A stretch of DNA of 62,152 nt, counting the filler, from Klebsormidium nitens (lineage: Eukaryota > Plantae > Klebsormidiophyceae): assembly GCA_000708835.1 (NCBI GenBank). It is 7 parts of 7 records of this genome, joined end to end, with 100 filler letters (N's around TTAATTAATTAA, not from the genome) between each part and the next. Parts side by side here need not be neighbours in the genome. Positions count along the whole stretch, not along the records: positions 30,017 to 34,101 come from DF238532.1; 6 more parts are not named here. The stretch is one strand, 5' to 3'. Position 1 is the first letter of the stretch, and each line of letters begins with the position of its first letter. Position numbers and translations under genes: made by a program. The notes under the pieces were generated by a model. It was not told the origin of the DNA, did no database searches, and was given only the letters and a program-made list of their open reading frames with translations. This document shows positions 30,017-51,827 of the stretch, piece by piece.

Positions 30017-30017
30017 A

Positions 30018-31289
30018 TCCGTGACCAACATCAACACGATCGAATGCACGAACTACATGAATCCTCCGGCTCCTCGAGTGGTGGTGAGCAAGATGATAGG
30101 CAAGCCGGGCGAAGCCCGCTCGTTCGACTGTGGGCCCGCGGGCCTCAGCGGAATGCTCCTGAAAGCGTCGGCCGTGGTGGATTCCATCCAACCCATCTGC
30201 GGCACGGACCTGGGCACGAAGGACGTCAACGCGTACATCAAAGGCTACCCCTGGTCCACCGGTGCTTCCATCGGCGGACCTAACGCGCCCCAGTTCGCTC
30301 AATGGTGTGCAGCCGGCAGTCGACCGGCCGGCGACAAGGCTCTCATAACATCCATCTCAGGAGGCCCGGCGAACAACGGCAACCACCCTAATGATCTCAG
30401 CAAGTTGTCGTTCACGTGCAAAGACTTTGCGGAAATCGATGCCGTGAAGAACGATCCAGAGCGGACGGCGGACGTCTGCATCGGGACGGATCCGCTGACG
30501 CCCGAACTGTCCGGCGCGATCGACTGCAATGGTTCGATGAAGGGTTACTGCACCGGTACTCGGGCCTGGTCCAACAAGTGCAACATCTACGTCGGCAAGG
30601 TTCCGACGCAAGCCGCCGATCAAGACAGAGCGAAGATGGACCACTGCTCGACGGGTCAGAACTACAAGAGTCAGGTCTGTCAAGACTTTTGCCTCGCCGG
30701 CGGAGTCGACATGTACGTCCCCGGCGGCCCGGGAAGGCCCGCCTTCAAAGATCAGTGTAACGTGCTCTATGCGAACAAGTGCAAGGGGGACTCTTCGGAC
30801 CTGTGCTCCTGCGTCAACAAACCCCGTCTAGAAGACTGGGGGGCGGACCAGACGTACCAAGCGGTGATGAGCGCCGTGAACGGAACGGCAGGAGCGAATC
30901 GCAATCCCCAGTGTTACTTCGGACCTTGCAAGGAAAGAGGCTACAAGGCCGTCAGCTTCTCGAAAGCTGGATGCCCGAGCTGCTTGAACAGCATCACCGT
31001 CTCAGGAACCGACGGAGGAGTCGCTAGCCTGGGCAGTGCCGTCCAGTCCTGCCTCGCCAGCGATGCGCCGGCACCAGCCGCCGCTCCCTCTCCCTCCAAG
31101 AGCGGCACGTCCTCCGGTTCCTCGGGGTCCCTTCAGACGCCAGCGCCCTCTCCACCCAAGGGGTGGCTGTATGCTTTGCTCATCCTCATCGCCGTCGTCC
31201 TCGTCGCAGCGCTGCTCGAGTGGGTCTTCACAGGCGACAAACCCACTCCGAGACCCGCAGCTTCCACCATGAACCATGCGCCGACCTAG
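30018..31289 (+). CDS. Intronless cysteine-rich membrane protein resembling the NCLDV entry-fusion family A16/G9/J5 (5'-partial)
   Basis: Frame is open from the contig edge. Cysteine pattern CQDFC..C...Y..KC.....LCSC...NPQCYFGPC.....CPSC..I, then a Pro/Ser linker and a single C-terminal TM helix (WLYALLILIAVVLVAALLEWVF). Family assigned from pattern recall, not a search. Confidence 0.6.
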   Translation, partial: SVTNINTIECTNYMNPPAPRVVVSKMIGKPGEARSFDCGPAGLSGMLLKASAVVDSIQPICGTDLGTKDVNAYIKGYPWSTGASIGGPNAPQFAQWCAAGSRPAGDKALITSISGGPANNGNHPNDLSKLSFTCKDFAEIDAVKNDPERTADVCIGTDPLTPELSGAIDCNGSMKGYCTGTRAWSNKCNIYVGKVPTQAADQDRAKMDHCSTGQNYKSQVCQDFCLAGGVDMYVPGGPGRPAFKDQCNVLYANKCKGDSSDLCSCVNKPRLEDWGADQTYQAVMSAVNGTAGANRNPQCYFGPCKERGYKAVSFSKAGCPSCLNSITVSGTDGGVASLGSAVQSCLASDAPAPAAAPSPSKSGTSSGSSGSLQTPAPSPPKGWLYALLILIAVVLVAALLEWVFTGDKPTPRPAASTMNHAPT

Positions 31290-31330
31290 CCGGTCTTCGG
31301 GAAAATAATCTGATCTTCTTTCCGAACGGT

Positions 31331-31522
31331 ATGTCGGAACCCTTACCGCGATCGAGCGATTCGGGCGACCAGACCTCGAATCACAACTCCGACGCTAGGG
31401 CTAAGAAACCGCCACCGAGTACTCATCCGCCAAAGAAGAACATGGATGCAGGCGTTCCGCCCCCGAAACCCATCGAACGTTCCAGCAGCTGGTTCCGTTA
31501 CCTCACCGGATCTTGGTTCTAA
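31331..31522 (+). CDS. Small ORF (63 aa), possibly a viral gene cut by the IS607 insertion
   Basis: MSEPLPRSS...SSSWFRYLTGSWF*. The frame can be continued into the right flank of the element (see findings). Confidence 0.3.
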   Translation: MSEPLPRSSDSGDQTSNHNSDARAKKPPPSTHPPKKNMDAGVPPPKPIERSSSWFRYLTGSWF

Positions 31523-31827
31523 AAGTTGTGGAACTACTCCCTATGCATTTAGAGTCTGCGTAAGTCTGCGTCCCAAAGAATGTTTGATGTCGAGAAGCAC
31601 CGATGGGTATTGACGTTTACGCCATTTGTCCAGACACGCTTATTCAGAAGAGCATGGAATCCAGGATGTTAGAAGAGCTTGGCTGGACGGAACCCAGAGG
31701 TCCTTGCTGCTGCCAGCTTTGCTTCTCGATCCTACTCAATCCTTCTCGAAACCTATCGAACTTCGGTCACGTCACACCTTATTAAGACCGAACAACATTG
31801 CTGAGGTCACCCTGCCATCGACGCGCC

Positions 31828-31835
31828 TATAAAAG
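31828..31835 (+). promoter_or_regulatory. TATA box upstream of tnpA
   Basis: TATAAAAG starts 58 nt before the ATG at 31886, followed by a pyrimidine-rich leader. Confidence 0.5.
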
Positions 31836-31885
31836 CCCGGATTACAAACATTCTCTCTCATTTCCAAAGATGCTCCCTCCACACA

Positions 31886-32836
31886 ATGTTCCTCGGCTTC
31901 AAGGCCGCCAAGGCCCACTTCGGGGTCTCCTCTTGCACACTCCGAAGGTGGGCCAATGAAGCCAAGGTCGTCTCCAAGCGCACCGCTGGCAACCACAGGG
32001 TCTTCCTCGCCGCCACCTCCCAAGCGGAAGAAGGCCGGGAACGCCTCGCCTACTGCCGTGTCAGCAGCTCCAAGCAGCGCGACGACCTGCAGCGCCAGAA
32101 GGACTTTCTCGCTCACCAATACCCCGGACACCGCATTGTCACGGACGTGGGCTCCGGCATCAACTTCAAGAGACCCGGACTGCTATCCCTTCTGGAACGA
32201 GTCTTGCAAGGCCGAGTATCGCAAGTGGTGGTTACCAGCAAAGACCGCCTGTGCCGCTTCGCGTTCGAGCTCCTTCAATGGATCTGCCTCCGCCAAGGGA
32301 CACAGATCCTGGTTCTCGATTCAGGAGACAAGTCACCAAACGAGGAGTGCACAGAGGACATCCTGGCCATCATGCAAGTATTCGCTGGTAGATGGAACGG
32401 CAAGAGGCGCTACAAGCAGGGAGGCGCGCGCAAGCGGGGCTCCCCCGACGGCAGTTCAGGTGGCTCGGGCGTGCCCGACTGTGTGCAGGAAGATCCGGGC
32501 CTTCCCGACGGCGCAGCAGCGCAACATACTCCGGAGGCTGGTGGGCGGGTGCAGGAAGCTGTACAACGAGGCGGTCTCCATGATCCGGGATCGCAGGCTG
32601 CCGTTCGCGAGCGAGGCGGAGTTCCGGGAGGCCGAGCGAGAGCGAGGGCTCCGGCTCGCCGAGCGGAAGCGCAAGGCCAGAAGCGGCCAAGAGGAGGAGA
32701 GCGGGCGAGGGGAGGGGGCGGGAGCGTACAAGGGCACGAAGCACCCGTGGCTCGACAAGGTGTACGTGAAGAACTTTCTGGTCCCGGAGAAGAGTGCATT
32801 CGTGCGGGCGAACCCGTACCTGAAGGACGTGCCTAA
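31886..32836 (+). CDS. tnpA: IS607 TnpA serine recombinase (N-terminal MerR-like HTH plus catalytic domain) with a long C-terminal run-on
   Basis: HFGVSSCTLRRWANE..RTAGNHR (HTH), AYCRVSSSKQRDDLQRQ (catalytic Ser), DVGSGINFKRPGL, KDRLCRFAFEL, EDILAIMQVF..GKRRYK. Confidence 0.92.
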   Translation: MFLGFKAAKAHFGVSSCTLRRWANEAKVVSKRTAGNHRVFLAATSQAEEGRERLAYCRVSSSKQRDDLQRQKDFLAHQYPGHRIVTDVGSGINFKRPGLLSLLERVLQGRVSQVVVTSKDRLCRFAFELLQWICLRQGTQILVLDSGDKSPNEECTEDILAIMQVFAGRWNGKRRYKQGGARKRGSPDGSSGGSGVPDCVQEDPGLPDGAAAQHTPEAGGRVQEAVQRGGLHDPGSQAAVRERGGVPGGRARARAPARRAEAQGQKRPRGGERARGGGGSVQGHEAPVARQGVREELSGPGEECIRAGEPVPEGRA

Positions 32837-33929
32837 GGAGACGAGGCAGCAGGCGGTGGAAGACGCGATCGAGGCGTGCAAGGCGGCCCTGAGCAACGTG
32901 CGAGCGGGCAACATCGAGCACTTCAGCCTGGGGTTCCGGAAGAAGAAGGACCCGCGGTGGTCGCTGGCAGTGGCGTTCAATGCGGTTTCAGGCAGCAGGT
33001 TCTGGCCGCGCAAGATCAAGGAGTTCGGGCAGCTGCGGGTGGCGGAGCCAGGGCACCTGAGGCCCCACTACGACAGGGAGCTGAAGGTCTCCAAAGACGA
33101 GCTGGGCCGCTACTGGATGCTGGTCCTGAGTGCGAAGGGCCCCGCCAGGGGCACGAACGAGGCTGCGGCCAGGGTGGAGGCGCTGGCAGAGTCGACCCGC
33201 GAGAACCAAGCGGGGGACCGGCCCGTAGCTGCCATCGACCCCGGCGTGCGGACTCGGCACTCGATCTACATGACGGACGGCAGGGTGGTGGACGTAGGCG
33301 GGGGAGACATCGCCCGTGTGGTGCGGCTCTGCCGCCACGTAGACCGCTGCATCTCCGCGCTGAAGAAGGGAGAATTCTGTGTGTCACGGAAGCACGTGAG
33401 GCGTGAGCCTGGTGCGTCTACTATGCGGCTGTTCGACCACTACCGCCCGGCCAAGAAGGAGCAGGGGGCGCATGTCGTCCCGCTAGACGGGCGTAGCAGG
33501 GAGCACATTCGGGCGAAGATGCACCGGCTGAGGGCAAAGGTACAGGCGCTGAAGGACGAGGTAGACAATCAGACGGTTGCATACCTGGTAAGGGAGTGCA
33601 AGGCGGTGCTCCTCCCGCCGTTCGACACGCATCGCATGGCGACGCGGCTGAATCACAAGACGGCACGGGCGATGATGCAGTGGAGGCACGGGGCATTCAA
33701 AGCCAAGCTGTTGGAGCGGGCAGCACGGATGGGCGTGCAGGTGATGGTCGTTCCGGAGGCGTACACGAGCAAGACATGTGGGGCGTGTGGGTGGCTGCAC
33801 CCAAGCTTGGGAGGGGCGAAGACGTTCCAGTGCAGGAGCTGTGGAGTGGAGTTAGACCGGGACCACAACGGTGCCCGTAATATCTTCCTGAGAGCAATTC
33901 GGTCTTGGGGAGTAGATAGCCCCGAATGA
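31956..33929 (+). CDS. tnpB: Fanzor2/TnpB RNA-guided nuclease; recognisable core starts ~32485, true start uncertain
   Basis: KIRAFPT..Q...L......R.LYN N-terminus, RuvC-I AIDPG, Pro at the canonical Glu position (VLLPPF), alternative Glu in VPEAYTSKTC, zinc finger CGAC...CRSC, RuvC-III DRDHNGARNI. No stops or frameshifts. Confidence 0.93.
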   Translation: MKPRSSPSAPLATTGSSSPPPPKRKKAGNASPTAVSAAPSSATTCSARRTFSLTNTPDTALSRTWAPASTSRDPDCYPFWNESCKAEYRKWWLPAKTACAASRSSSFNGSASAKGHRSWFSIQETSHQTRSAQRTSWPSCKYSLVDGTARGATSREARASGAPPTAVQVARACPTVCRKIRAFPTAQQRNILRRLVGGCRKLYNEAVSMIRDRRLPFASEAEFREAERERGLRLAERKRKARSGQEEESGRGEGAGAYKGTKHPWLDKVYVKNFLVPEKSAFVRANPYLKDVPKETRQQAVEDAIEACKAALSNVRAGNIEHFSLGFRKKKDPRWSLAVAFNAVSGSRFWPRKIKEFGQLRVAEPGHLRPHYDRELKVSKDELGRYWMLVLSAKGPARGTNEAAARVEALAESTRENQAGDRPVAAIDPGVRTRHSIYMTDGRVVDVGGGDIARVVRLCRHVDRCISALKKGEFCVSRKHVRREPGASTMRLFDHYRPAKKEQGAHVVPLDGRSREHIRAKMHRLRAKVQALKDEVDNQTVAYLVRECKAVLLPPFDTHRMATRLNHKTARAMMQWRHGAFKAKLLERAARMGVQVMVVPEAYTSKTCGACGWLHPSLGGAKTFQCRSCGVELDRDHNGARNIFLRAIRSWGVDSPE

Positions 33930-34084
33930 ACCTGGCGCTGCCGGGGACGAGTCGGAGAGATGGCTCCTAGTCCCAGAAGTATGAGGGGCTTGGTACTAGG
34001 CTAGAGGTAGGAGATAGCACGGTACACAGAAACTGAGTAGGATTACTTAAGTTTCAACCATCGGATCTGTGGCAGACGGAAGTG
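33930..34084 (+). ncRNA. Predicted omegaRNA (scaffold to 34064, guide ~34065-34084)
   Basis: 11-bp bulged hairpin 34029-34055; stems cctagt/actagg (33966-33971 with 33995-34000) and gggac/gtccc (33944-33948 with 33970-33974); gatgg 33959-33963 complementary to ccatc 34058-34062 just before GG. The 5' end may lie inside tnpB. Confidence 0.6.
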
Positions 34085-34254
34085 TAGTCTGTCCATATCA
34101 TNNNNNNNNNNNNNNNNNNNNNNNNNNNNNNNNNNNNNNNNNNNNTTAATTAATTAANNNNNNNNNNNNNNNNNNNNNNNNNNNNNNNNNNNNNNNNNNN
34201 NTGATCCCATTGTATATTATATGCGACTTTTCAGAAGAAAAATATAACAGATTA

Positions 34255-35591: not shown

Positions 35592-38500
35592 ATGCAAGGT
35601 ACAGGAGCAACTGCAATGCGAAAACGGATAAAGGGTTTTCTGTTAGGGCTGAGAATCGTCCTGAGGCAAAGCCTGCTAGGAGGGCAGCAGCTCAGGACCC
35701 GCTCGCGAGCATCGAGAAAGCAATCTCGTCGAGGATTATAAAGCTGGAAAACGACATTGAGGCGGCTGGAAAGGCAGGCAATCTCGAGCGGCGGGATGTG
35801 CTGGAGAAGAGGTTGGAAAAGCTGCAAGAGCGATGGATGGCGCTGGTGGAGAAAAGCCTGGAGCTGAAGGTGCAGAAAAGCCTGGTGCTGAAGGGAGGGA
35901 CGCTTTCCAGGCCGCCAGGTTTGCCTCTTCTCTAATTGTGCATTCAGACCGTCATTGGCCGAGAATCTCCCTGGAGCGGCCTTTCTGGTGCGTTCAGTAA
36001 ACCAGCGCACAGATACATCAAGGCCGGGGCAGCCAATGTTCTGCTGCGGGGTATTTTCCTCTGTTGCTCGCTGATGTTTTGTTGCTCAATGGGGTTCTGA
36101 TAATCTGCAGACAAGAAGGCTTCATGATGCAGAGAGTCTGGATCAAACCTCGTTTTGCTGCTCATGAAAGCCTTAGCTGCAGTTGGCTCAACCTGGGACT
36201 GCACACGGGGTACTGGCTCGTAGAGCTTTGTTTGTGTGCAGCAGTGGCTGGTCCAGACAGGGGTGAAACTTCGTGGTTGTCTTCATGTGTTGGCATGGCG
36301 TCAGGGCTTGCCAGCATCAGTTCTGGCAAGCCTCTGCATTTGAGGCACCTGGGCTGCTTACATAGAGTGCCCATTCTGGGGAACGTTGTGAGCCGTGATT
36401 TTGGTCCTAAGGCTTTAGGGATTTGCCAAGCAATCCCTTGGGTTCATGGATCTTCAGCGCTTCTCTTGCGGGCTTATGCCAAAACTGCAGATGGAAACTC
36501 TTTATCACGCAGTTGCTTCTACTAATGACCAAAGGCAGTTCAGAGAACGGCTATGTCCAGGGCAGTCACAGTCGCAGTCGCAGTCGCAGTCGCAGGTTGT
36601 CACTGAAAGGAGAACTGTTGCCTCTGTGTGCAGCGAAAGCGCCGCAAGGGCTGAGCAACTTCTGGAAGGCCTTGCCGCGCGCAACATGGTCCGATGACGG
36701 GAAGCTCATGACTCTGGCGGAGGGAACCAGCTTCATGGGATACGAGAAGTTTGGTGACAAGATGTTCATCCGCGAGAGTTACCATGGGATGGATCAGGAG
36801 CTGAAGCGCGTCTTCATCCAGGACGATGGGATCGCGGTGGTGCTTGTTGGAAACCCTGGTGAGCAGGAAGCACGGACACATTTTCTGTTGGTCGACGGTA
36901 GAATGTGCATGGTGTGGAGGTCAAACACTGCAGGTTTGCTGGTCGATTGCCCGGGAAATGGCCTCTGAGATCTGACAAGAATTCCCTCCTGCGCAGGGGT
37001 CGGCAAGTCCATCTATGGGTTCAGGCTCCTCTACCAGTGGTCATGCGAGCAGCGGCGAGTTGTTGTCGTCAAGAGGGGCACCTGCCCCATCCCAACTCTC
37101 CTTACGCCGGATGGGGCGTTCAAACTGGACGCAGCTGGCCTGGAAGCAGAATTGGATGACCCGGACGTCCGGTACGTGGCTCCTTTCATTCTGGTGTGCA
37201 CCTGTTGTATTTGTTCGTCTAGTGAAGCCGGCTGCCATGAATTTCACAAGTGTGGTGTGCTGTGGATTGTGCTTCGGTTGCTCCATCAATAAAGGAGTAC
37301 CCGTGAAGTCGCATCGGATCGATGAACGACCTCAAACTTGCTCGACCCCACCCTTCTTGCAGCTCATCTGGGGAGGACATGCATTCTAAGCCTTGCGCAT
37401 GTACAGCTGAGGGGCGCTGCGTGACCTTTTTCCTTTAAAAGCAGTTCTCACTCTTGCTGGCCACAGGTACCTGGTGGACTCTCTGGACCCGTCCCTCGTC
37501 GGTTCGCTGCCCACTAAAGCGAAGATGGTCGTCATCTCGTCCCCCAACAGAAACGTCTAAGAGGTGAGGCCTGCCGGCAGTCTGCTGTGAACGGCACACC
37601 GGTACTTGCTGAAGCTCAATCTTGCCGGTGCACTTGTTTTGGTGACTTGCCCAATTGGCGGAATCATCCCAACGCATGGAGTTGTGCCCGGTCAAGCCTA
37701 GTCACGCCTTGACAAACCTGTCTGCGTGCTCTACTTCTTGGTGGCAGGAGGTTTGCAAAGGGCCCGGTTACGTCATGCGCTACTTTGACACCTGGTCGCT
37801 GGAGGAGCTGCTGGAGTGCTGGAGCCGCATGTTTGCCTGGCAGTCGCAGGAGGAGGTTCAAGAGCGCTTCTATAGGTATGGCGTCCATCTCTCTGGCAAT
37901 GCAATCGCATTGACCGGCTCTGTGATTTCTGGAAACTCAATCCGGATTGATCAGTTTCGGATTGCCAACAACGGTACCCACGTAATCGTTGAAAGTACCC
38001 ACCCCTGATGTTGACTCCGTCGAAGCTGATAAGTTGGGACGCTTCTAAGATGCCATCGTGGCAGCCAATTGGCAGGATCGACATCCGTGTGCTATCATCG
38101 ACGGTCACAGGTCTGACCGCGGGCCAGGTTGTGTTCTTTTAACCAAGCCCCGGGCTAAGTACGTAGCCACGGGCCACTGCCTCTGTATTTCGAGCTGCTT
38201 AGCCTGTCAGACTCTTGGGTAGGTGATGACATTTTGGTCCCTGGGGACTTTACTCCTATCGGGTACATCGAGCTTCCGTTCGTGCGGAGACCTACACGGC
38301 TCGTCATGCACACTCTGCACGGTTCAAGGGCTCAGGAAGTCCGACGTGGAAAGTTATCGCCGGACGATCCGCCTCACCGGTCCACAGTGTCACCATAGCA
38401 TGTTCGCGCGTAGGTACGACGGTCCCCTCGGCCTCTGCAATAACCAATCCGGAACTGTCTAAAGGCGGAACCAAGTCGTGCATACGCTCTGTGGAGGCCA

Positions 38501-40011
38501 CTCAATCTTGCTTGCAGCCGTTCCTACATCTGCTGTTCCAAAAAATGATGTGCCTTGAGCTCACGGGGTTGCACCCCTTTGCGTCTCGCTAGAAGTCTTG
38601 TCCGCTGTCCGCTCGGTGTGACCACCCCCGTGAAACCCGTCTGTGGAAATCGTCGCTTCTCCAAGCCGAGTATTCACATCGTTCCTTTCTTGGCACTTCG
38701 AAAGAGTCTCATGGTGCTGGGCGTTAATTTTGGGCCCTTTTCTCTCCCCGCCGCCTCTACAGATTACCTGTCTCGGTACCCTTGTCCAATATCCGGGCCC
38801 CAATTCATACCCTGATCATCTGTTTGCCCAATCCCGCCTGGTAACACCCTGCTGGAACCTTCTGGTTGCTTTCGGCCGTTGACGCGAGCCGCTCCGTATG
38901 CATCTGCACTCACATCTTAATCCTCTCGTCCTAAGCCCGGCTCGAAACCCGGATTCTGCACGCTCGCTCTGTATCTGTCTCATTCCGTGGAGTGACTCGG
39001 TTCAGTCACTTTGATAAAACCGTCATCTCGACCCGTTCTCCTGTCGCCCCTCCTGCGACTTCAGCGGTACAGGTTCTGTTTCCGACCTTTGCCTGCAACC
39101 TCGGACGAGTGTCCCGTACTCGAACCCGATGCCAAACCCGCCCCTGACCCATTCTCAAACCCCGTCTCTCACCTGCCTTCATTGCGCGCTCGTTGAACCA
39201 CTTTTCGCGTTACTTCGGTCCGTGCAGATGGGGGGGCGTGCCCCGGTACGTGCTGGAGAAGCTCGACACGACGAACCAAAATCTGCTGGAAAGAGCAATC
39301 GGCCGGACGGATCTCACCGCTCTCAAGCAGGCGGTGGGAGATCCGGAGTCCCCCCAGGCAGCTAGCCACAAGCTGCTTCACCTGAGGGCTAATCCCGATT
39401 TCCAGACGACGTACATGGAGATGGCCTCCCCGTATGTCCAGGAACTGGTGGCGTTCAAACTTTGGGAGAACGAATCGCTGGCCCTGGAACTTTTCCTTAG
39501 CGCGGCGACAGACGATCCGACCGTGGCAGGTTTTCGGGGTAACCTCTTCGAAGGCTTCTGTCACCGAAGGCTGAAAAATGGGGGTACTTTCAGGGTCAGG
39601 GACCTTGCTTCAGGCAGCGTGGACGAGATCGTCCTGCAACCAACAAGAAAAGCCCTTGCCTTTGCAAGCTGGCAGGAAGTGGAAGCGGAGACGGACGATG
39701 AGCGGTATTTCCAGCCGCTGAATAGGCGAACCGCGGCCGTGGACGGGGGGATGCAGCCGGACAAGCTTTTCCAGTTCACGGTGTCCGCCGAGGGGAAGAA
39801 GAACAAGGGGCTGGTATTCGCGAGTTTGAGGGATGCGGTGCGCAGCATGAAGAACAAGTCCGAAGTCAAGCTGTTCTTCGTGTTGCCGCCAGATCAGTTC
39901 TTCGAGGCCAAGGAAGTGAAGATTGCGGGCAGCGGTAAGGGGATGGAAGGAGTAGCGCAAGTCCGGAAGGTTTTGAAGCAGTTCGCGCTCGAAATCAGTT
40001 TCAAGCGGTAA
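35592..40011 (+). pseudogene. Crinkler/RHS-like P-loop NTPase plus restriction-endonuclease-fold protein with one in-frame TAA
   Basis: Exons 35691-35918, 36634-36858, 36997-37171, 37467-37563, 37748-37875, 39228-40011; the start at 35592 is tentative. Walker A GNPG|GVGKS, YLVD, VISSPN, WSLEEL, WGGVPRYV, GNLFEGFCH, AAVDG, LFQFTVS. TAA at 37558-37560. Confidence 0.75.
36563..36595. repeat. (CAGTCG)n microsatellite, intronic
   Basis: cagtca(cagtcg)4cag. Confidence 0.9.
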
Positions 40012-40607: not shown

Positions 40608-42634
40608 CCGCTTGACGTCGTAGCCGTAGTTTGTCGCAGCCAAGAGCAGCAGGCGCATGTCTTCCTTGAGTTCGCCAAACTCCAGCGTGATGGATTCGAT
40701 ACGAGTCAACCCGGTCGCGTCGTAAAGGTGCGTGACTCGTTCTGTGGCTCTTTGCAAGGTTTGTTCCGGAGCGCCCCGGCAAAGTCGTCTCACGAGTGCC
40801 TGGCACTGTGCGAACGCCTCCTCGAGGCCGGGTGCCCCGATCGTTCCGAATGCGTCCGTGATGCTCGTCGCGCATTCCGATAGGGCAGACGCGGCGCTTC
40901 CTACGTCTGACGTCGAATCCAGCTGAGTGCATCCGAGACGGATGCCGGACTCGCTGATGTTCTCTCGAATGGCGTCCATCCAGACCCCGAATGCCTTCAG
41001 ACGGACCGCGAAGTCTTGGAGGTAGTCCGGAGGGTCCGCGACGATGGCGTTGCACGCGTTCCCATTCGGCGCGCCGGACGTGTCGAATATGATGTTCAAT
41101 GTGGACACGTCGGGGATCGGATCCATGACGACGTCCTTGGTTTCGCAAATTCCTCTGATCGAAGTCTCGAGGCGCCGTATCGCAGGCGCCGTTTCTGGCG
41201 CAAACTCGTTCAAGAGATCCCATTCTGCTCTGACGGGTGCGTCGGGGGCGAAGAGCGAGCACAGCGATTCGGCCTCACCCAAGGACCTGACGTACAGCTG
41301 TAGCGCGACCCTCGTCTTCTGAGAGTCGACCAGTTTTCTAAGTCCGGCGAGGTGCTCCGGATCCCGGGTGACGAGCTCCTCCGCCAATCCTCGAAGTGCC
41401 ATCATGATCTCGGATTCTCCGTCCAACGTCATGCTTTCGACATTCCCTGACTCGCGCAATGCCTTTGACGCGTCCTGCAAGAACTCGATGGAAGTCGAGT
41501 CGGCGATGGAGCTGACGAAAGTCCGCGAATTCATGTACAGTCCGCTGAACCTGGCGAACTCGCCGGCCTGCTCCCGTCCGAATACTCGGGAAACGTCGTC
41601 GGTTCTCAGGAATCGGGAGTCGCGTGTGGTGATGTATTGGAAGCTATCTTCGTAGAGTAAGAGAGCATCGTCGCAGGCTTCTTTCACCGCCGTCAGAAAC
41701 TCGGCGAAGGACTCCGCTTCCGGCCATCTCGGCGGGGGCGTGACGAGAGGGAACTTCGTTCGTGGGTTGCTGTGCTGGAGTAAGAATTCACCATCTGCCG
41801 AGATCCGATATAAGGCCCCTCGATCGGCTTCGCCGGCGTCGGGTGGTCGTTTCTCGAGTTCGGTCAGGGCGAAGAGGGGCGTCATGCGATGCGAGAGGAG
41901 CGTTATGATCTCTCTTGCGAAGGACCCACTCGTCATACTCTCGATGTGATGATTCACTCCATCGAAGTCGACGTTCATTTCCCCCAGAGCACGGACGGCC
42001 TTTGTAGCACAGAAGAGGTCATTCAGGAGTGCGTAGAACTTGAATGCCTTTTCGAGAGTTTGAATGTCCGCACATCCGTTCGCCGCGCTCGTTCTCTCTT
42101 TCTCCAGTCTGGACAATTGGGATCGGATCAGGTCGAACAGGGAGTCGACGTCCTTCCCGGTCATCGGATTCTGTGCCGCAGACGTCTGTTCGGCAAAGAT
42201 CCCTACGTAATCGCCCAAGAGGTCGGCGCGAGGAGTCGTGCGTATTTCTTTGGCGGTCTCGATGACTTGCGCGAGTTTTCGACACCGCTCGAAATAGAGT
42301 GGGTCATTGCGTGCGAGGTCCACCGCCAGGTTCCGGAACGTGGTGTCGTCGTCAGCGGTCCGATTGATCTTAGGCGGTCTCATCATATTTTCGGTTTCTT
42401 TGAGAGCCTCCGCTGCGAGTTCCAGGAACCTGGCTGGTTGGTCTACGACGGCTTTCGCAAAGTCCCTGGGCAGAGAGGATCGATAAACCACCCCTTCGAA
42501 CGTCCGCGCCGCCCCCTCTCCGAACGTCGCTGTCACTCTCCCCCTGTCCGCTCTTCCAGAGTCGCGTAGAACGTCTAATATGCTGTTCGCATACAAGTCG
42601 GGTGCTTCTCCAGAAGCATCCCTGACTCTCCCGA
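40608..42634 (-). CDS. Intronless ~675-aa partial ORF filling a whole contig, unknown function
   Basis: One frame is open across the 2027-bp contig and runs off both ends. Looks mostly helical; no motif recognised. Confidence 0.7.
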
Positions 42635-50895: not shown

Positions 50896-51827
50896 TGTAA
50901 CGGTACGGAAGCCGACCNNNNNNNNNNNNNNNNNNNNNNNNNNNNNNNNNNNNNNNNNNNNNNNNNNNNNNNNNNNNNNNNNNNNNNNNNNNNNNNNNNN
51001 NNNNNNNNNNNNNNNNNNNNNNNNNNNNNNNNNNNNNNNNNNNNNNNNNNNNNNNNNNNNNNNNNNNNNNNNNNNNNNNNNNNNNNNNNNNNNNNNNNNN
51101 NNNNNNNNNNNNNNNNNNNNNNNNNNNNNNNNNNNNNNNNNNNNNNNNNNNNNNNNNNNNNNNNNNNNNNNNNNNNNNNNNNNNNNNNNNNNNNNNNNNN
51201 NNNNNNNNNNNNNNNNNNNNNNNNNNNNNNNNNNNNNNNNNNNNNNNNNNNNNNNNNNNNNNNNNNNNNNNNNNNNNNNNNNNNNNNNNNNNNNNNNNNN
51301 NNNNNNNNNNNNNNNNNNNNNNNNNNNNNNNNNNNNNNNNNNNNNNNNNNNNNNNNNNNNNNNNNNNNNNNNNNNNNNNNNNNNNNNNNNNNNNNNNNNN
51401 NNNNNNNNNNNNNNNNNNNNNNNNNNNNNNNNNNNNNNNNNNNNNNNNNNNNNNNNNNNNNNNNNNNNNNNNNNNNNNNNNNNNNNNNNNNNNNNNNNNN
51501 NNNNNNNNNNNNNNNNNNNNNNNNNNNNNNNNNNNNNNNNNNNNNNNNNNNNNNNNNNNNNNNNNNNNNNNNNNNNNNNNNNNNNNNNNNNNNNNNNNNN
51601 NNNNNNNNNNNNNNNNNNNNNNNNNNNNNNNNNNNNNNNNNNNNNNNNNNNNNNNNNNNNNNNNNNNNNNNNNNNNNNNNNNNNNNNNNNNNNNNNNNNN
51701 NNNNNNNNNNNNNNNNNNNNNNNNNNNNNNNNNNNNNNNNNNNNNNNNNNNNNNNNNNNNNNNNNNNNNNNNNNNNNNNNNNNNNNNNNNNNNNNNNNNN
51801 NNNNNGGTCGGCTTCCGTACCGTTACA
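50896..51827. mobile_element. TGT...ACA element with perfect terminal inverted repeats and 5-bp TSD; interior unassembled
   Basis: tgtaacggtacggaagccgacc (50896-50917) and ggtcggcttccgtaccgttaca (51806-51827) are exact reverse complements. CTCAG duplicated at 50891-50895 and 51828-51832. 888 N between. Confidence 0.85.

Follow-up and report, generated by a model that had tools for sequence, protein, structure and literature searches.

Does a short contig of the alga Klebsormidium nitens (assembly GCA_000708835.1) hold an intact IS607-type transposon with an RNA-guided Fanzor2 nuclease, where does the element begin and end, and what does the overlap of its two genes mean? The window, that is, the whole 62,152-nucleotide (nt) stretch analysed, is a chain of short contigs joined by N-linkers, and the element, found once within the window, is on a contig of 4,085 bp (30017-34101). 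Judged from its sequence, 31701-34062 makes up a complete transposon of the IS607 family, 2,362 bp long between its two GG cores, and holds two open, overlapping genes. With a probability of about 0.72, it is a jumping gene moved by a serine recombinase and equipped with an RNA-guided Fanzor2 predicted to cut vacated sites. Beyond this copy, the N-terminal domain of Fanzor2 was probably born by +1 overprinting of the IS607 transposase gene and held by selection from cyanobacteria through giant viruses to this streptophyte alga, surviving the death or relocation of tnpA; the locus would then be an autonomous, recently mobile example with defined ends and a new predicted target-adjacent motif (TAM) of AGG, which had been hidden by a chimeric gene model. 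The features of the element are as follows.

31698..31700, + strand: left core GG with the preceding A, that is AGG, the predicted TAM (four of four different left flanks listed)
31701..31885, + strand: left end, with repeats at 31722-31760 and an inverted-repeat arm at 31729-31738
31886..32836, + strand: tnpA, IS607 serine recombinase, 316 amino acids (aa), no stop
31956..33929, + strand: Fanzor2 nuclease, 657 aa from the ATG at 31956, with D428, P554, E601, D636 and a C4 zinc finger
31956..32419, + strand: dual-coding stretch, where the tnpA core read in +1 gives the N-terminal domain of Fanzor
33912..34064, + strand: predicted omegaRNA scaffold and right end, with the arm 34034-34043, the core GG 34063-34064 and a putative 5′ limit
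34065..34084, + strand: predicted guide in the right flank, which differs between copies after 34064

The original prediction of an IS607-linked Fanzor2 is supported by profile, structure and tree. The recombinase gene is uninterrupted, as had been claimed, and scored 145.6 bits against NF033518 (the NCBIfam IS607 transposase; cut-off 110). Its product carries a BldC/MerR-type helix-turn-helix (HTH; aa 10-42) and a Resolvase domain (aa 55-175, with YCRVSS at aa 56-61), the core extending to about aa 178, and its PDB matches were the TnpA proteins of ISC1904, ISC1926 and IS1535; a sigma-70 scan found nothing. For the nuclease, the full D-E-D triad and zinc finger noticed earlier were recovered as AIDPG (D428), VPEAYTSKTC (E601), DRDHN (D636) and CGAC/CRSC, with P554 at the canonical RuvC-II position. 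Among 154 homologues of at least 350 aa each, every row with a residue at the site kept D428 (153/153), E601 (151/151) and D636 (148/148), and P554 and the four zinc cysteines were kept as well. The protein thus carries the Fanzor2 signature of a DPG in RuvC-I and a Glu six residues before the zinc finger (C608), with P554 replacing the canonical Glu; DPG plus shifted Glu defines Fanzors and pro-Fanzors (bioRxiv 10.1101/2023.08.09.552727; this and the papers below are cited for the parts of them consulted).

A 124-sequence family profile matched ApmFz2 (PDB 9b0l) at E 2.3e-78, the next chain following at 2e-38, and 9b0l was also the best Foldseek match in the PDB for the AlphaFold model (predicted local distance difference test, pLDDT, 81.2). 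In BFVD, 27 top rows precede the first phage row, and the named ones among them are giant-virus transposases. The profile match includes the N-terminal domain, aligning from ApmFz2 residue 75 onwards and covering N82-S83-W84; pLDDT in this part of the model reaches 91 and 85 in the blocks 81-90 and 121-130 and stays below 50 in aa 1-46. In a FastTree phylogeny of 85 rows (ApmFz2 left out; L001, a metagenome contig, grouped as prokaryotic), the protein belongs to a 5-row clade with K. nitens-like proteins (support 100), itself nested in a clade of 15 rows (support 100); the ten further rows of the latter carry no taxon label, and it is separate from the 13-row cyanobacterial clade. Membership in Fanzor2*, captured by transposons with terminal inverted repeats (TIRs), does not fit a locus with tnpA, GG cores and no TIR. 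As DNA, close relatives turned up in no viral contig, and in metagenome contigs one distant locus only was found.

Two insertions relative to typical TnpB had been noticed; insertions are present, yet as three to four low-occupancy segments against the 154 homologues (aa 216-226, 231-266, 400-415 and 473-508). The segment at aa 473-508 is predicted to fold (block pLDDT 74-89) and is common to the relatives P0001, P0003, P0020 and P0024, not to P0006, P0007 and P0022. The basic patch RKRKAR was located at aa 237-242. Its role as the main nuclear localization signal (NLS) is open to doubt: the patch is part of a predicted helix within an insertion, and a disordered N-terminal PKRKK sits where the NLS of ApmFz2 does.

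The nuclease frame and tnpA share 881 nt, some 465 of them over the recombinase core, and the first ~155 Fanzor codons are in the +1 frame of that core. Since Fanzor starts at 31956, its N-terminal domain is therefore overprinted in +1 on tnpA. The motifs of this domain are PKRKK (aa 22-26), FWN..WLP (aa 79-94) and SWFS (aa 118-121), of which FWN..WLP is read from TnpA LLERVLQGRVSQVVV and SWFS from TnpA ILVL. By profile, R117-S118-W119 align with N82-S83-W84 of ApmFz2, whose N82 and S83 contact the RNA pseudoknot; the cryo-EM paper calls the N-terminal domain unique to Fanzor2 and describes its contacts with the pseudoknot and with target DNA (PMC11832414). The TnpA tail region (32420-32836) forms a second dual-coded stretch, over the HTH/REC region of Fanzor.

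The overlap was examined across intact, non-identical tnpA genes, clustered at 90%, by counting +1 stops in the last 120 codons, with the expectation obtained by synonymous resampling. Where the partner has a DPG plus shifted Glu, 47 of 49 clusters had no +1 stop, against a mean of 8.6 expected. The same was true for five of six clusters with a DPG-only partner, two of two with a shifted-Glu-only partner and two of six with a truncated or unclear partner, whereas none of the 5 with a canonical partner and none of the 25 with no partner detected lacked a +1 stop. Most Fanzor-type loci in this test had been found by a Fanzor query, which favours the result; among 61 genes from TnpA searches alone, 18 had 0-1 stops and 43 had 3-18, and all 13 with a DPG-type partner had none. 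Furthermore, 24 loci carry the N-terminal domain with no intact same-strand tnpA, and seven of them show a tnpA remnant in the expected frame (E <1e-4). The giant-virus loci L011, L025 and L037 kept the N-terminal domain and show no tnpA remnant, having a separate tnpA on the other strand; in these three, the overlap is uncoupled while Fanzor keeps the domain. By these stop counts, the overprinted layout is lineage-wide and selected. The overlap also offers an origin of the Fanzor2 N-terminal domain by overprinting, which is not specific to this window. A tnpA/Fanzor overlap was not found in print, in a literature search that did not extend to subscription papers and some supplements.

Two further observations concern these loci. 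In L011, L025, L031 and L037, a downstream tnpA runs in the opposite direction, and its +1 frame is broken by 26-32 stops. In L210 (from G252), tnpA has no +1 stop and the partner open reading frame (ORF) starts downstream in another frame; it may be a frameshifted pro-Fanzor.

The element ends were mapped by comparison with sequencing runs (six of 24 listed runs, all as contigs; X1, X5, X6, X7 and X9 are cited here). In a 6,053-nt contig of X5, the whole of 31698-34064 is present, differing in 46 letters and bordered left and right by unrelated sequence, thus a full copy elsewhere, ~98% identical; the family was probably mobile in the recent past. In X9, two contigs start matching at 31696-31697 and have different upstream sequence. 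The four different left flanks (window, X5 and two in X9) all end in AGG, among the ends listed. On the right, the flanks after the core GG at 34063-34064 are unrelated in X1 and X5, which confirms the right end there. The left end had been placed at 31517; this was not borne out, as the element starts at 31701 after the GG at 31699-31700, 184 bases further inside.

In known IS607 ends, short direct repeats lie ~20-60 bp in from the left end, together with an inverted repeat that is off-set (PMC6188088). Here, four direct 8-mers with 10-11 bp spacing begin at end position 22 (31722-31760), and a chain of four arose in 0 of 2000 shuffles; a 10-bp inverted repeat has its arms at 31729-31738 and 34034-34043, 29 and 20 from the ends, and arose in 18 of 2000. 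Both match the IS607 end layout within 31701-34064 and so support an IS607 element, in keeping with GG ends and the lack of a TIR or target-site duplication. With a start at 31517, neither signal is beyond chance (repeat array in 763 and inverted repeat in 1322 of 2000 shuffles). That start was rejected on this ground and on the diverged X7 and X9 versions, which continue otherwise after 31699. No circle junction was found among the joints listed in the sequencing-run contigs.

The extra 184 bases to the left call for a separate explanation, and two features are needed here.

31331..31522, + strand: short ORF, 63 aa, which runs into an insertion at about 31517
31517..31698, + strand: left piece of another inserted element, following the GG at 31515-31516

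At this site, one X9 contig carries a diverged form of 31517-31699, followed by other sequence, and an X7 contig likewise continues otherwise. In X1, a contig joins 31518, perhaps with letters between, to 34063, an empty-like allele of the outer site. The piece 31517-31698 is thus likely a remnant of another element. On the simplest reading of these joints, that other element sat in the ORF at 31331-31522, likely the interrupted target, the autonomous element entered it at AGG, and the remainder was lost between similar right ends. The outer boundary of the piece is uncertain by two bases: because no homologue of the short ORF was found, it is left at 31516 or 31518, and left cores that do not match are known for IS607 TnpA (bioRxiv 10.1101/2023.11.20.567912). 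The piece has a 10-bp tandem repeat of its own at 31553-31571.

A structured 3′ end had been noticed; the 3′ region folds modestly better than shuffles, at z -2.30 (4/200), or -2.19 over another span, and the terminal hairpin at -2.73 (4/200), with z only -1.46 for 33965-34064. Rfam gave no match for the right-end RNA. Related ends begin matching at 33912-33914 and 33951, and in X1 the summed depth, 14 over the ORF, climbs to 138 at 33988, suggesting many related right ends. In the predicted scaffold, 33922-33925 are a candidate for pairing with 34061-34064; within the fold of 33912-34084, the variants that other copies show at 33988 and 34033 leave the pairs at these positions intact. The pseudoknot of ApmFz2 joins the 5′ part of the scaffold with its last bases (PMC11832414). 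The RNA first proposed, 33930-34084, would omit 33922-33925, which can pair with the 3′ end of the scaffold and also belong to the part common to related ends (from ~33912 on). The earlier claim that all parts for reconstitution are present thus stands only in altered form: the protein has to begin at the ATG at 31956, and the RNA would need an earlier start.

The last three letters of right ends before the flank are CGG or, in one X1 copy, TGG. ISXfa1 cuts GGG and not CGG, a form of self-protection (bioRxiv 10.1101/2023.08.09.552727). With self-protection of the ISXfa1 type, the TAM should exclude CGG and TGG, fitting the predicted AGG. The length of the guide is set by analogy with right-end RNAs (reRNAs; same source). 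As a rejected line, 84 viral stretches with a 16-nt right-end pattern were put down to chance, as 0 of the 80 examined had a tblastn or blastn match to the element.

By analogy with IS607 and TnpB work, TnpA would bind the left-end repeats, excise a double-stranded circle and insert it at GG. A transcript through the right end would give a ~150-nt scaffold plus a guide derived from the flank, and the nuclease would cut vacated sites bearing the TAM (predicted AGG), promoting copying-back of the element; filled sites would be spared, since they show CGG or TGG at the right end. One mRNA would serve for both proteins: translation of TnpA would start at the AUG at 31886, and that of Fanzor at the following AUG, 31956, in the +1 frame. 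The third frame holds an upstream ORF of 29 codons (31870-31959) whose TGA overlaps the Fanzor ATG at 31956; it could allow re-initiation or be a matter of chance.

The copy is not new to databases: GAQ93499.1, a K. nitens 'putative Resolvase', has the same letters as this locus, on a contig likewise of 4,085 bp, and is one of the Fanzor hits published in PMC10711439 (Table S2). The element is thus of a known class, and the locus was already tabulated as a mis-spliced TnpA-Fanzor model. GAQ93499.1 is one spliced 633-aa chimera: its first 154 aa are those of TnpA, the rest is Fanzor from residue 179 onwards, and the N-terminal domain of the nuclease is missing; because the public model drops this domain, the protein must start at the ATG at 31956. 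The record is missing from the K. nitens rows in the curated Table S3 and in Table S5 of that paper, whose consulted parts do not describe its ends, TAM or RNA, and a search of Data S1 of PMC10530073 (cells compared to 400 letters) recovered no motif of this protein. As the nuclease gene starts inside tnpA, this locus and four others of K. nitens are represented in public models by TnpA-Fanzor chimeras, and cloning from them would lose a domain needed for RNA contact.

Several points weigh against a working element. The TnpA tail past the core is 139 aa, compared with a median of 24 and a maximum of 57 in 90 relatives. In Fanzor, G366 and H517 are shared by none of the ten close relatives that cover each site. 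Over the ORFs, X1 contigs differ by one letter with no indel, which speaks for an intact copy, yet this letter turns the conserved I643 (136/148) into Asn; X1, X5 and X6 carry one extra G at 33942 in the RNA region, and either difference may be a defect or an assembly error. Five close relatives (P0011, P0012, P0016, P0017 and P0021) look shortened or frameshifted. The guide of this copy targets a site after TGG, not AGG, so that the copy may have no cleavable target, and left flanks beyond the four listed may exist. It is therefore possible, if rather doubtful, that the sequence is intact and the copy silent or partly dead, that is, a recent insertion repressed or decaying (possibly in an integrated giant-virus segment), with TnpA hit by a lost stop or Fanzor by private substitutions; the uncut empty-like allele in X1, which matches this copy's guide, would fit. 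Yet none of the differences listed for X5, X7 and X9 restores a stop in the tnpA frame, the only one there in X5 being an in-frame 12-nt deletion, so the tail may be a subfamily trait; the columns of G366 and H517 vary family-wide, and the catalytic and zinc residues are all kept. Moreover, the empty-like allele may persist because its guide site follows TGG, which is not the predicted TAM.

The other two readings concern what the locus encodes and whose it is. Expression as a spliced 633-aa fusion (TnpA 1-154 plus Fanzor 179-657, across a 142-nt GT-AG intron at 32347-32488) is what GAQ93499.1 proposes, the GT and AG are present, and GAQ92436.1, GAQ92077.1, GAQ91406.1 and GAQ87932.1 are K. nitens TnpA-Fanzor chimeras too. 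These models join at different places, as would be expected of a gene finder bridging two overlapping frames; the splice would remove the end of the recombinase profile match and the entire conserved N-terminal domain of the nuclease, and the two-frame layout is also kept in bacteria, which have no spliceosome. A fusion is thus very unlikely. That the contig is a bacterial contaminant carrying a cyanobacterial pro-Fanzor is very unlikely: it is short and unplaced with intronless ORFs, and the closest named relatives outside the alga include cyanobacterial IS607, but the protein falls outside the cyanobacterial clade, as the separate 15-row and 13-row clades of the tree show, which answers the placement check that had been set. 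In addition, two proteins named as K. nitens, one a 65%-identical relative and the other a paralogue of the flanking gene, sit on contigs of 18 kb and 89 kb, and no close locus occurs among the 80 best prokaryotic matches (best segments at most 40%). A complete, two-gene IS607 transposon remains the preferred reading.

IS607-linked Fanzor2 has long been known (PMC3627910, PMC13565253). Its closest characterised counterpart here, ApmFz2 or ApmFNuc (mimivirus L79, PDB 9B0L; PMC11832414, PMC10530073), shares the DPG, shifted Glu and zinc finger, the N-terminal domain with its basic patch, an IS607 host element and a G-rich target, with the triad Asp324/Glu467/Asp501 in place of D428/E601/D636. 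The two differ in length (520 aa, compared with 657 here, with extra insertions at 216-266, 400-415 and 473-508), in TAM (GGG versus the predicted AGG), in the residue at the canonical Glu position (Gly versus Pro) and in scaffold (205 nt versus a predicted ~150 nt), and structural alignment gives only ~14% identity. Cyanobacterial pro-Fanzor or TnpB2 IS607 elements (PMC10711439) have the DPG and shifted Glu, an upstream tnpA and the same +1 overlap; they form a separate clade with best segments at most 40% identical, have much shorter TnpA tails and, in some families, use other core dinucleotides (GC, AC). For example, the copies L100, L104, L106, L109-L111, and L155 and L158, appear to end in GC or AC and not GG.

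KnFNuc, the tested K. nitens Fanzor, bears the same species label and is an RNA-guided RuvC nuclease, but is a Fanzor1 with TAM TTA from a different element (PMC10530073). IS607, IS1535, ISXfa1 and CboIStron (PMC6188088; bioRxiv 10.1101/2023.08.09.552727; 10.1101/2023.11.20.567912) resemble the locus in a serine TnpA with an N-terminal HTH, the GG core, left-end direct repeats, an off-set inverted repeat and a self-protecting right-end CGG; in contrast, sampled IS607 tnpA genes with a canonical TnpB partner have 5-15 +1 stops and no overprinted domain. Few autonomous eukaryotic IS607 elements have been tested, and this locus, from an alga close to land plants, brings a Fanzor2 open to testing, with its own transposase, mapped ends, AGG as predicted TAM and an extra insertion predicted to fold.

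Upstream of the element and its target, one further gene lies on the contig.

30017..31289, + strand: intronless, Cys-rich ORF truncated at the contig edge, with a hydrophobic C-terminal helix, outside the element

The virus-like character ascribed to the contig was not confirmed. This ORF was assigned to no Pfam, PHROG or Atlas (whole protein) family, a PDB search returned only a kelch-repeat artefact, no relative was found on viral contigs, and its structure model is unusable (pLDDT 31.8). Its relatives span 469-486 aa and are unnamed metagenome proteins and a K. nitens paralogue. At least two variants of this ORF family, ~4-6% apart, occur in X1, several adjoining the same insertion site. 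A likeness to poxvirus-type membrane proteins was supported by no test. The ORF is the only full-size neighbour gene on the contig by which a setting among nucleocytoplasmic large DNA viruses (NCLDVs) can be judged, and eukaryotic genes, for example for pentatricopeptide repeat (PPR) proteins, lie on other contigs of the window. NCLDV genes or giant-virus insertions were reported in K. nitens (as K. flaccidum; PMC5294986, PMC11244446). An integrated-virus setting of the contig has about even odds.

Elsewhere in the window, ORFs at 36423-36968 and 39415-40011 may be pieces of a Crinkler/RHS-like protein; the one piece scanned gave no Pfam hit. A long intronless ORF of ~590 aa at 40608-42386 on the - strand, cut by the edge and with no Pfam family, is alone on a 2-kb contig. 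At 50902-51821, an 888-N gap lies between an inverted pair of the same 15-16 bases, probably an assembly artefact.

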